From: Escherichia coli
GTDB taxonomy: Bacteria; Pseudomonadota; Gammaproteobacteria; Enterobacterales; Enterobacteriaceae
NCBI RefSeq assembly: GCF_003334785.1
Contig: NZ_QOWV01000018.1
Length of the DNA: 64,000 nucleotides
Reading direction: 5' to 3' (one strand)
Part shown: positions 8,484-40,739 of the stretch, one piece after another
Layout of the letters: every line of letters starts with the position of its first letter
Position numbering within the stretch: position 1 is the stretch's first letter
Translations under genes and position numbers: made by a program
The notes under the pieces: model-generated
The model's database searches: none
What the model was told of the DNA's origin: nothing
The model's input: only the letters and a program-made list of their open reading frames with translations

Positions 8484-9434
8484 TTACAACCAGTTCTTCC
8501 GCTTAAAGTACAGATACGGTGCCAGGCCCGCGAGGATCATAAAGATAATCGCGCCAGGGTAGCCGAAGCTCCACTTCAGTTCTGGCATAAACTCAAAGTT
8601 CATGCCATAGCTGGAAGCAACGAGCGTCGGCGGCAGGAATACCACGGATACCACCGAGAAGATTTTGATGATGCGGTTCTGCTCGATGTTGATAAAACCC
8701 ATTGCCGCCTGCATCAGGAAGTTCACCTTCTGGAACAGGGATTCGTTATGCGGCAGCAGGGATTCGATATCTCGCAGGATTTCACGCGCCTGCTCCAGTT
8801 GCCCACCCGGTAAACGCGCTTTACGCACCAGGAAGTTGAGCGCGCGCTGGGTATCCATCAGACACAGGCGAACTTTCCAGCCGATATCTTCCAGTTCCGC
8901 CAGAGTGGAGAGCGCCTCGTCGTACTCATCGCCCTGATGCCCTTCCATAATCACCCGGCTCAACTGCTCCAGGTCGCTATAGATATTTTCAATTTCATCT
9001 GCCAACTGTTCGATTTTGGTTTCGAACAGATCCAGCAGCAACTCGTAGGCGTTACCGTCTACCATCGACTGGCTACGGGCACGCATACGATACAGACGAA
9101 AAGCGGGCAGTTCACGCTCACGCAGAGTAAACAGACGACCATCACGGATGGTAAATGCCACAGTGGAGTTACCGGCGTGATCTTCCGCATCTTCAAAGAA
9201 GAAGAAGGAGTGAATATGCAGGCCGTCGTCGTCTTCAAAGAAACGTGCCGATGCTTCGATGTCTTCCAGTTCCGGGCGGGTTGCCAGGCTCTGGCCAAGT
9301 TCAGATTGTACGCGCAGTCGCTCGTCGTCGTCCGGTTCGACAAGATCAATCCATACTGCATTTACAAGGGGTTGTGACTCTTCGACTTCCAGCCGGGTCA
9401 GTCGGTTATTTTCCAGTTGAAATGCGCTCAGCAT
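8484..9434 (-). CDS. corA: magnesium/cobalt transport protein CorA
   Basis: Canonical start MLSAFQ gives 316 aa; C-terminal YGMNF motif present. Confidence 0.95.
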
Positions 9435-21793: not shown

Positions 21794-22987
21794 ATGACGG
21801 AACAAGAAAAAACCTCCGCCGTGGTTGAAGAGACCAGGGAGGCCGTGGACACCACGTCACAACCTGTCGCAACAGAAAAAAAGAGTAAGAACAATACCGC
21901 ATTGATTCTCAGCGCGGTGGCTATCGCTATTGCTCTGGCGGCGGGCATCGGTTTGTATGGCTGGGGTAAACAACAGGCCGTCAATCAGACCGCCACCAGC
22001 GATGCCCTGGCTAACCAACTGACGGCATTGCAAAAAGCCCAGGAGAGCCAAAAAGCCGAGCTGGAAGGCATTATTAAGCAACAAGCTGCACAACTTAAGC
22101 AGGCGAATCGTCAGCAAGAAACGCTGGCAAAACAGTTGGATGAAGTCCAACAAAAGGTCGCCACCATTTCCGGCAGCGATGCTAAAACCTGGCTGCTGGC
22201 TCAGGCCGATTTTCTGGTGAAACTCGCCGGACGGAAGCTGTGGAGCGATCAGGACGTCACGACCGCTGCAGCGTTGCTGAAAAGTGCAGACGCCAGCCTG
22301 GCGGATATGAATGACCCGAGTCTGATTACCGTTCGTCGGGCAATTACCGATGATATCGCCAGCCTTTCTGCAGTATCGCAGGTGGATTATGACGGCATAA
22401 TCCTTAAGCTTAATCAGCTTTCAAATCAGGTAGATAACCTGCGTCTGGCCGATAATGACAGCGATGGTTCGCCGATGGATTCAGACGGTGAAGAGCTTTC
22501 CAGTTCCATCAGCGAATGGCGTATCAATCTGCAAAAAAGCTGGCAGAACTTTATGGACAACTTCATTACGATTCGCCGTCGTGATGACACCGCCGTACCG
22601 CTGTTAGCGCCAAATCAGGATATCTATCTGCGCGAAAATATTCGCTCTCGCCTGCTGGTCGCAGCACAAGCTGTACCGCGTCACCAGGAAGAGACTTATC
22701 GCCAGGCGCTGGAGAACGTCTCCACCTGGGTACGTGCTTACTACGATACTGATGATGCCACCACCAAAGCGTTCCTCGACGAGGTGGACCAGTTAAGCCA
22801 GCAAAATATCTCGATGGATCTTCCGGAAACCCTGCAAAGCCAGGCGATGCTGGAAAAACTGATGCAGACTCGCGTGCGTAACCTGCTGGCACAACCGGCA
22901 GCGGGGACAACGGAAGCTAAACCTGCACCTGCACCTGCACCTGCACCGCAAGCTGATACTCCGGCAGCCGCGCCGCAAGGAGAATAA
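21794..22987 (+). CDS. hemX: HemX (putative uroporphyrinogen-III C-methyltransferase, membrane-anchored coiled-coil protein)
   Basis: 397 aa ORF with one TM segment, coiled-coil region and a C-terminal Pro/Ala-rich tail containing (PA)n. Confidence 0.9.
22922..22945 (+). repeat. Perfect hexanucleotide tandem repeat (CCTGCA)x4 within the 3' end of hemX
   Basis: cctgcacctgcacctgcacctgca read directly in the sequence; encodes PAPAPAPA. Confidence 0.9.
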
Positions 22988-22989
22988 CC

Positions 22990-24186
22990 ATGCTAAAAGT
23001 GTTATTGCTCTTTGTGTTGCTGATTGCGGGGATCGTGGTTGGCCCGATGATTGCCGGCCATCAGGGTTATGTGCTGATCCAGACCGACAACTACAATATC
23101 GAAACCAGCGTCACGGGCCTGGCGATCATATTGATTCTGGCGATGGTAGTGCTGTTTGCCATTGAGTGGCTACTGCGGCGGATCTTCCGCACTGGCGCGC
23201 ACACCCGTGGGTGGTTTGTCGGACGTAAGCGTCGCCGTGCACGTAAGCAGACCGAACAGGCGCTGCTGAAACTGGCGGAAGGCGATTATCAGCAAGTTGA
23301 AAAGCTGATGGCGAAAAATGCCGATCACGCGGAACAACCGGTGGTGAACTATCTACTGGCTGCCGAAGCCGCGCAACAACGTGGTGATGAAGCACGCGCC
23401 AACCAACATCTGGAACGCGCAGCGGAGCTGGCCGGCAACGACACCATTCCGGTAGAAATCACCCGCGTACGTCTGCAACTGGCCCGTAATGAAAACCATG
23501 CTGCACGCCACGGCGTGGATAAGCTGCTGGAAGTTACGCCACGCCATCCGGAAGTATTACGTCTGGCGGAACAGGCGTATATCCGCACAGGTGCATGGAG
23601 TTCGCTGCTGGATATTATCCCATCAATGGCGAAAGCCCATGTTGGTGATGAAGAACATCGTGCAATGCTGGAACAACAGGCATGGATTGGCCTGATGGAT
23701 CAGGCGCGTGCCGATAACGGTAGCGAAGGTTTGCGTAACTGGTGGAAAAACCAAAGCCGGAAAACGCGTCATCAGGTAGCGTTGCAGGTGGCAATGGCGG
23801 AACATCTTATTGAATGTGACGATCATGATACTGCCCAGCAAATTATCATCGATGGCCTGAAACGCCAGTACGACGATCGCCTACTGCTGCCGATTCCTCG
23901 ACTGAAAACAAACAATCCGGAACAGCTGGAAAAAGTGCTGCGCCAGCAAATCAAAAACGTCGGCGATCGCCCGCTGTTGTGGAGCACACTGGGCCAGTCA
24001 CTGATGAAGCACGGAGAATGGCAGGAAGCATCGCTCGCCTTCCGCGCAGCGCTGAAACAACGTCCGGACGCCTACGATTACGCATGGCTTGCCGACGCGC
24101 TGGACAGACTGCACAAGCCGGAAGAAGCTGCAGCGATGCGTCGCGACGGTTTGATGTTAACGTTGCAGAATAACCCGCCACAGTAG
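22990..24186 (+). CDS. hemY: HemY (TPR-containing inner membrane protein of the hem operon)
   Basis: 398 aa ORF with two N-terminal TM segments; immediately follows hemX. Confidence 0.93.
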   Translation: MLKVLLLFVLLIAGIVVGPMIAGHQGYVLIQTDNYNIETSVTGLAIILILAMVVLFAIEWLLRRIFRTGAHTRGWFVGRKRRRARKQTEQALLKLAEGDYQQVEKLMAKNADHAEQPVVNYLLAAEAAQQRGDEARANQHLERAAELAGNDTIPVEITRVRLQLARNENHAARHGVDKLLEVTPRHPEVLRLAEQAYIRTGAWSSLLDIIPSMAKAHVGDEEHRAMLEQQAWIGLMDQARADNGSEGLRNWWKNQSRKTRHQVALQVAMAEHLIECDDHDTAQQIIIDGLKRQYDDRLLLPIPRLKTNNPEQLEKVLRQQIKNVGDRPLLWSTLGQSLMKHGEWQEASLAFRAALKQRPDAYDYAWLADALDRLHKPEEAAAMRRDGLMLTLQNNPPQ

Positions 24187-39612: not shown

Positions 39613-40739
39613 AGTGATATCCGATTATTTTTTAACGCTTCCAGAATGCGAGAGCATGCCTGACCATCACCATACGGGTTATGGGCGCGGCTCATAGCTT
39701 GATATTCGTTTTCGTCTTTTAAAAGACGCGTCACTTCCTCGACAATTCGCTGCTTATCCGTGCCTACCAGACGCACCGTACCCGCCGTCACCGCTTCCGG
39801 ACGCTCAGTGGTATCGCGCATCACCAGCACAGGTTTCCCCAGCGAAGGCGCTTCTTCCTGAATGCCGCCTGAGTCGGTCAAAATCAGCCAGGCGTGGTTC
39901 ATCAGCCAGACAAACGGTAAATACTCCTGGGGATCGATCAGAATGACATTTTTCACATGCCCCAGAATGCGATTGACCGGCTCTCTGACGTTCGGGTTGA
40001 GATGCACCGGATAGACAATCTGGATGTCCTGGTGCGTGGTGGCGATGTCTGCCAGCGCGTGGCAGATTTCTTCAAAGCCACGACCGAAACTCTCACGCCT
40101 GTGACCGGTCACCAGAATCATCTTTTTATCGGGGTCGATAAACGGGTAATTTGCCGCCAGTTCTGAACGCAGCTTGTCGCTGCTCATCACCTGGTCACGC
40201 ACCCATAACAGTGCATCAATGACTGTATTACCGGTAATGAAGATTCGGCTATCCGCAACGTTTTCACGCAGCAAGTTTTGCCGGGAAGTTTCGGTTGGAG
40301 AGAAGTGATACATCGCCAGATGCCCGGTCAATGTACGGTTAGCCTCTTCCGGCCACGGCGAATAGAGATCGCCCGTGCGCAGACCAGCCTCAACGTGACC
40401 AACAGGAATACGCTGATAAAACGCCGCCAGGCTGGTTGCCAGCGTCGTCGTCGTATCGCCGTGAACCAGCACGACGTCTGGTTTGAACTCGGCAAGAATA
40501 GGTTTTAGCCCTTCCAGAATCCGACAGGTTATCTCTGTCAGGCCCTGTCCTGGCTGCATTATGTTGAGATCGTAGTCAGGTACAATGGAAAAGAGTTTCA
40601 GCACCTGATCGAGCATCTCCCGATGCTGCGCAGTGACGCAAACTTTAGCCTCAAAAAAAGGATCTTTTGCCAACGCATGCACCAACGGCGCCATCTTGAT
40701 GGCTTCCGGGCGCGTACCAAATACAGTCAGTACTTTCAC
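39609..40739 (-). CDS. wecB: UDP-N-acetylglucosamine 2-epimerase
   Basis: Track ORF 390 aa from upstream ATG; canonical GTG start (cac at 40737-40739) gives 376 aa beginning (M)[17 protein letters not shown]. Confidence 0.93.

Follow-up and report, generated by a model that had tools for sequence, protein, structure and literature searches.

A hexanucleotide repeat near the 3' end of Escherichia coli hemX is the typing locus CVN014/EHC-1 and very probably a near-neutral, in-frame VNTR

INTRODUCTION

The hemX gene of Escherichia coli carries, close to its 3' end, a short run of identical six-base units that encodes alternating proline and alanine residues. Does the number of these units differ between strains, and if so, does the difference matter to the cell? 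The original prediction, made from the letters of the window alone (the window being the whole stretch of 64,000 nucleotides analyzed here), described a perfect (CCTGCA)4 array encoding PAPAPAPA in a Pro/Ala-rich C-terminal tail, took the K-12 protein to be shorter by the equivalent of two units, and proposed that the locus could vary among strains.

HemX was called "poorly characterized" in a review (PMC2704936). One preprint describes it as a distant homologue of Mic60, whose family forms membrane contact sites, and notes that HemX does not have the mitofilin domain (bioRxiv 10.1101/2022.06.14.496148).

RESULTS

The repeat lies in an open reading frame that belongs to the HemX family. The predicted protein of 397 amino acids scored 719 bits against NCBIfam model NF008173, far above the cut-off of 313, and its residues 130-363 matched Pfam HemX (PF04375) with an E value of 3.7e-108, which bears out the original assignment of the gene. 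RefSeq labels the matched gene hemX in every genome matched, and the neighbors of hemX are hemD and hemY, one on each side. The parts of the gene that matter here are the following.

21794..22987, + strand: hemX coding sequence, 397 amino acids (open reading frame with NCBIfam and Pfam matches)
22883..22984, + strand: codons of the C-terminal tail, residues 364-397 (34 residues), beyond the Pfam domain
22922..22945, + strand: perfect (CCTGCA)4 array, the variable core, encoding PAPAPAPA, HemX residues 377-384 (Tandem Repeats Finder and exact string)

Tandem Repeats Finder reported a sole array in this region, at 22921-22947, with a period of 6, 4.5 copies and 100% matches. The (CCTGCA)4 string had a single match in the 64 kb, even when 2 mismatches were allowed, and was found 0 times in 100 shuffles; no other perfect repeat in the window reaches 4 copies of a unit of 4-9 bases. 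Both the program and the exact string thus identify the short head-to-tail units that are expected of a VNTR. The units are in frame with the open reading frame: a codon AAA is followed by four pairs of CCT GCA and then by CCG CAA. The array is therefore present, perfect and in frame, as had been described. Of the span first given for it, 22922-22948, the start is correct and the end is not, as the array ends at 22945, or at 22947 with the partial fifth copy, and position 22948 already includes the next proline codon, CCG.

When the unit size was extended to 3-9 bases, the only other perfect repeats of at least 4 copies in the window were three trinucleotide runs.

9196-9207: trinucleotide run (AAG)4
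40443-40454: trinucleotide run (CGT)4
54970-54981: trinucleotide run (CCG)4

HemX starts with a short N-terminal segment that ends in EKKSKNNT, followed by a hydrophobic segment (residues 36-54, the only one in the protein), a predicted long helix, the HemX domain and the tail. Ala and Pro together make up 59% of the tail, which is not part of the Pfam HemX domain, in agreement with the description of a Pro/Ala-rich C-terminal tail, and only 13 residues follow the Pro-Ala array. The tail is probably periplasmic, judging from the positive-inside rule, because EKKSK immediately precedes the single hydrophobic segment. It is probably also unstructured. An AlphaFold2 model of HemX computed with 22 close homologues had a mean pLDDT of 43 and a pTM of 0.32, too poor to show disorder specific to the tail; this low-confidence model has no predicted secondary structure beyond residue 365.

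RefSeq and NCBIfam give HemX the product name "uroporphyrinogen-III C-methyltransferase", and in Pfam the family carries the label "putative." A Pfam scan of HemX found no methyltransferase domain, only the HemX domain and weak membrane and coiled-coil matches. Besides the HemX domain there is a single membrane segment. The name appears to be a legacy misannotation.

To what extent does the array vary? A 261-base query around the repeat was compared with the complete E. coli genomes (n = 5,426; a collection of E. coli only), and the locus was matched in 5,426 of 5,426. To estimate allele frequencies, we took 60 genomes at regular intervals along the ranking, as a single systematic sample, and calculated the number of units from the span of each match; the estimates were checked against identity-band counts and published data. 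The spans departed from that of the query in multiples of 6 only. The sample was distributed as follows.

2 units: 11 genomes
3 units: 1 genome
4 units: 8 genomes
5 units: 8 genomes
6 units: 8 genomes
7 units: 6 genomes
8 units: 6 genomes
9 units: 4 genomes
10 units: 3 genomes
11 units: 4 genomes
15 units: 1 genome
16 units: 1 genome

Both in this sample and in the published frequencies, the distribution is broad and flat across 2-11 units, with no preferred length.

We then read 17 sequences base by base, namely, 16 fetched loci and the window. Their flanks are near-identical, and the alleles differ by whole CCTGCA units only, with 2 to 11, 15, 16, 18, and 25 units; the arrays are perfect in all alleles read but one, which contains a CCTACA interruption. 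Strains with conserved flanks thus differ in copy number by whole units, as is typical of a VNTR. The longest allele, with 25 units, is that of strain SD134209, whose HemX has 439 amino acids, and the protein collection contains a 1-unit allele, a HemX of 391 amino acids found on 39 contigs. The prediction of a strain-variable locus therefore holds, as the genomes that we read contain 2 to 25 units and the short protein allele has one; a single four-unit allele and a single protein length throughout E. coli, the outcome that would have spoken against variability, was not what we found, as the alleles differ.

Long alleles are common. At least 9 units were present in 1,229 of the 5,426 genomes (22.7%), according to an indirect BLAST summary count in which a coverage of at least 80% of an artificial 30-unit query was read as at least 9 units (two pieces, each of flank plus repeat, add up); the 13 such genomes among the 60 sampled agree with this count. 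Artificial queries with 0 units or 30 units were also tried for ranking the extreme alleles, an approach that we rejected: the matches did not sort by copy number, since BLAST had merged two perfect pieces into places of full coverage. The resulting tables contain many O157:H7 alleles, and the highest number among the matches listed is 25 units.

Over 20 kb around the locus, at least 12 genomes are identical to the window at 100.0% (rounded), and all of them have 4 units like the window. A chromosome of K-12 (NZ_CP064680) reads aaaCCTGCACCTGCAccgcaa, that is, (CCTGCA)2, and its hemX is annotated with 1182 nt, or 393 amino acids. The length given for K-12 HemX in the original prediction was thus accurate, and the difference of 4 amino acids corresponds to the two units by which the (CCTGCA)4 array of the window exceeds that of K-12.

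Interrupted arrays do occur. The array of strain GPEC673 reads CCTGCA CCTGCA CCTACA (PAPAPT), and protein P0128 contains PAPAPTPAPAP; interruptions of this kind would be expected to stabilize the array. In all, the search gave 5,430 matching places. One of these is plasmid-borne, and in at least one case two places fall in the same genome, so the hemX-hemY junction is present a second time in a few records.

Copy number also changes within lineages. Genomes of the O157:H7 type have 4, 6-12, and 15-18 units, and the O55:H7 relative has 2. Alleles that share the flanking haplotype QADTP have 2, 4, 8, or 10 units, and those with the haplotype QADAP have 3, 5, 6, 8, 9, or 11. Three FRIK strains and two derivatives of 86-24, which are similarly named and probably related isolates, have 6 units each. 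Isolates of ST131 have 2-11 repeats at the typing locus CVN014 (PMC3407997), which we identify below with the hemX array. Recurrent change within clones (homoplasy) is thus seen in the O157:H7-type genomes and the QADTP haplotype and, according to PMC3407997, in ST131.

The hemX repeat is already a known typing marker: it is the MLVA locus CVN014 of generic E. coli and the locus EHC-1 of the Japanese EHEC scheme. CVN014 is said to have been included in the generic E. coli MLVA by Lindstedt et al. in 2007 (assays GECM-7 and GECM-10). EHC-1 reportedly belongs to the MLVA for EHEC O157/O26/O111 of Izumiya et al. in 2010, which is reportedly used by Japanese public-health laboratories. The identification is based on the primers of both assays, which have these sites in the window.

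22898..22917, + strand: site of primer CVN014-R, GCAGCRGGGACAACGGAAGC (primer tables of PMC8143711, Table 1, and PMC8261245, Table 2)
23009..23032, - strand: site of primer CVN014-F, TCCCCGCAATCAGCAAMACAAAGA, within the first hemY codons (same two primer tables)
22874..22893, + strand: site of the EHC-1 forward primer, GTGCGTAACCTGCTGGCACA (S5 table of PMC10062581)
22955..22972, - strand: site of the EHC-1 reverse primer, CGCGGCTGCCGGAGTATC (S5 table of PMC10062581)

Each primer of the two pairs matches once in the window, and the sites of each pair lie on either side of the repeat. The CVN014 amplicon, 22898-23032, has 135 bp, and the allele formula of that locus, (PS-111)/6 (PMC8143711), assigns the window to allele 4, as (135-111)/6 = 4. 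The same formula gave whole numbers in 16 of 16 alleles tested, with a value of 2 for K-12. Primers and amplicon size thus agree for CVN014, and the primers agree for EHC-1. At the sequence level there is no difference between the hemX array and CVN014: locus, 6-bp unit and allele range are the same, and so is the high variability, CVN014 being the most variable locus of its assay (PMC3877011). EHC-1 is the same repeat amplified with another primer pair, which gives a shorter amplicon than that of CVN014.

The published allele frequencies fit this identity. In Swedish ESBL-producing isolates, alleles of 2 to 12 repeats made up 15, 2, 5, 13, 20, 5, 11, 17, 6, 5, and 1%, respectively (PMC5217547, Table 3 as parsed), which is close to our sample of 60 genomes. 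The medians of O157 clades at EHC-1, 5 to 12 repeats (PMC10062581), fit the 4-18 units of the O157:H7-type genomes analyzed here. For the remaining nine loci of the generic MLVA, a search of the 64-kb window revealed no primer sites. The searchable open-access literature yielded no relevant mention of hemX as the host of an MLVA locus or tandem repeat; the link between CVN014 and the Pro-Ala tail of HemX is not prominent in the open-access literature.

DISCUSSION

Our analysis leads us to conclude, with high confidence, that the hemX repeat is a near-neutral, slippage-driven, in-frame hexanucleotide VNTR in a HemX tail that tolerates it, the same locus as CVN014/EHC-1. The codons point in this direction. 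All proline codons in the repeat are CCT and all alanine codons are GCA, and the other four prolines of the tail are encoded by CCG and its other alanines by mixed codons; this uniformity of the array argues for amplification at the DNA level rather than for selection of the peptide. With a unit of 6 bases, every change in copy number is in frame, and in 16 of 16 alleles translated the frame and the stop after ...APQGE are unchanged. The prediction that an in-frame hexamer varies between strains is therefore matched by what the alleles show, namely, whole-unit changes that keep the frame.

How might the copy number change? Judging from the pattern of the alleles, slipped-strand mispairing during replication is the most likely process. 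Each unit contains the palindrome TGCA, and both strands of longer arrays could form imperfect hairpins, in which each strand would fold as a series of 4-bp helices with C/C or G/G mismatches between them. The hairpins predicted for the DNA of 4 units are weak (-3.2 and -3.8 kcal/mol), and those predicted for 10 units reach -11.3 and -13.7 kcal/mol, with z scores of -4.4 and -3.0 relative to shuffled sequence. Such hairpins could stabilize the intermediates of slippage and reduce the stability of long alleles. Each change of 6 bases would stay in frame and add or remove one Pro-Ala dipeptide, and HemX would tolerate this gain or loss in a tail that lies beyond the conserved domain, the result being a near-neutral polymorphism. 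It is this near-neutral behavior that makes the repeat useful for strain typing.

The locus resembles two kinds of known repeats. STTR5 in yohM of Salmonella Typhimurium (PMC5183578 and general knowledge) also has a 6-bp unit within a coding sequence, changes stepwise and is used in MLVA, but it concerns another gene, species, and peptide. The contingency loci of Haemophilus, Neisseria, and Campylobacter are likewise intragenic tandem repeats, and they slip at high frequency. In contrast to these, the hemX unit is a multiple of 3 and causes neither frameshifts nor on/off switching; a phase-variable contingency locus is defined by an on/off switch through a shift of frame or promoter spacing, whereas the hemX alleles translated all keep their frame, and the accessibility predicted for the hemY start is practically constant from 2 to 20 units.

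Could the length of the tail nevertheless be under selection? The number of Pro-Ala dipeptides might set the reach or stiffness of the HemX C terminus in the periplasm and be selected lineage by lineage, making hemX a graded contingency locus and not an on/off one. We regard such adaptive tuning as improbable. The range is very wide, from 1 unit (2 residues) to 25 units (50 residues), and some lengths are typical of lineages, as the O157 clade medians at EHC-1 illustrate (PMC10062581), but the flat distribution over 2-11 units gives no sign of a preferred length. Among relatives, all HemX proteins examined keep the tail. In Enterobacteriaceae it is always rich in Pro and Ala, with differences in length and sequence and with a conserved final ...PAAAPQGE. 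The HemX proteins of Citrobacter species have 2-4 PA (3-4 in C. gillenii and C. freundii relatives), and Citrobacter sedlakii varies independently by one to three PAA units (P0024, P0014, and P0027, with 394, 397, and 400 amino acids), whereas a PA run is absent from the HemX of Salmonella. The description of HemX as a distant Mic60 homologue, and hence a relative of a contact-site family, would be in keeping with a tuned tail; however, hemX is dispensable in K-12, where the Keio deletion strain is viable and grows, gentamicin sensitivity being its reported phenotype (PMC12282077). Moreover, the single codon pair repeated throughout the array suggests recent slippage of the DNA and not selection at the level of the protein.

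Alternating Pro-Ala sequences are known to form extended, flexible or semi-rigid spacers. The composition of the HemX segment recurs in envelope and multidomain proteins, such as OmpA with its APAPAPAP hinge and pyruvate dehydrogenase with the Ala-Pro linkers of its E2 subunit, but the HemX segment is a C-terminal tail and not an interdomain linker, and its length is unconstrained within the species. The length of the (Pro-Ala)n tail might matter for function if the tail served as an adjustable spacer of HemX, a distant Mic60 homologue, towards a periplasmic or outer-membrane partner, a proposal to which we assign a very low likelihood; what speaks for it is confined to the wide range of alleles and the conserved richness of the tail in Pro and Ala. 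If the spacer reading were true, slippage would let lineages differ heritably but reversibly in a trait related to the envelope or to heme.

A second alternative concerns the downstream gene, whose start and putative ribosome-binding site are located as follows.

22977..22982, + strand: Shine-Dalgarno-like AAGGAG for hemY, within the last hemX codons
22990..24186, + strand: hemY coding sequence, starting 2 nt after the hemX stop codon

The conserved ...PQGE end of HemX can be explained by this arrangement, because the Shine-Dalgarno sequence of hemY overlaps its codons. In the RNA of positions 22960-23031, the Shine-Dalgarno sequence and start (22990) of hemY are predicted to pair with the first hemY codons (minimum free energy of -28.5 kcal/mol, z score of -1.9). 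Considering this hairpin and the hemX stop codon 2 nt before the hemY ATG, we think that translation of hemY is probably coupled to ribosomes finishing hemX. Might the repeat, whose end is 44 nt upstream of the hemY start, then alter mRNA structure or ribosome traffic just ahead of that start and so tune the synthesis of HemY? The proximity of the repeat, together with a Shine-Dalgarno sequence that lies inside the HemX tail codons and probably depends on hemX-translating ribosomes, makes the idea reasonable, but no such effect is predicted. The energy computed for opening the hemY Shine-Dalgarno sequence and AUG amounts to about 12.6 kcal/mol at 4 to 20 units and stays within 11.8-14.1 kcal/mol at 0 to 20 units, and the repeat takes no part in the local hairpin. 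In addition, all alleles retain the frame and the same stop codon, by which translational coupling is kept. We therefore hold a tuning of HemY by the repeat to be exceedingly unlikely.

The remaining alternative, that the differences in copy number are artefacts of sequencing or assembly, is effectively refuted, for although draft assemblies do break at the repeat and some "partial" HemX proteins end at or inside it, the differences amount to whole units throughout finished genomes, the probably related FRIK (three) and 86-24-derived (two) isolates share a 6-unit allele, the genomes that match the window at 100.0% (rounded) over 20 kb, at least 12 in number, share its 4-unit allele, and PCR fragment sizing in many laboratories has independently given the same range.

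A near-neutral, slippage-driven VNTR thus accounts best for the data, and it has practical consequences. The annotated length of HemX, 391 to 439 amino acids, varies due to this repeat alone. The number of units can be taken straight from genome sequences and compared with older MLVA data; the window has allele 4. Because the repeat has been part of E. coli fingerprinting since 2007 (as CVN014) and 2010 (as EHC-1), its variability carries little weight as a discovery.

The "partial" HemX proteins P0125 and P0127, both from draft genomes, end in ...TTEA and ...PAPAPAPAP, immediately ahead of the Pro-Ala run or within it. Contigs built from short reads thus seem to end at the repeat, and breaks in short-read assemblies can occur there. 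Protein P0001, of 485 amino acids and from an ENA metagenome contig, has an internal duplication of 88 residues that joins two differing tails; the record is probably chimeric, two strains having been joined at the repeat during assembly. In protein P0112 (JGI), of 435 amino acids, the HemX tail is frameshifted and runs on into the hemY region; the shift is either genuine or an error of sequencing.
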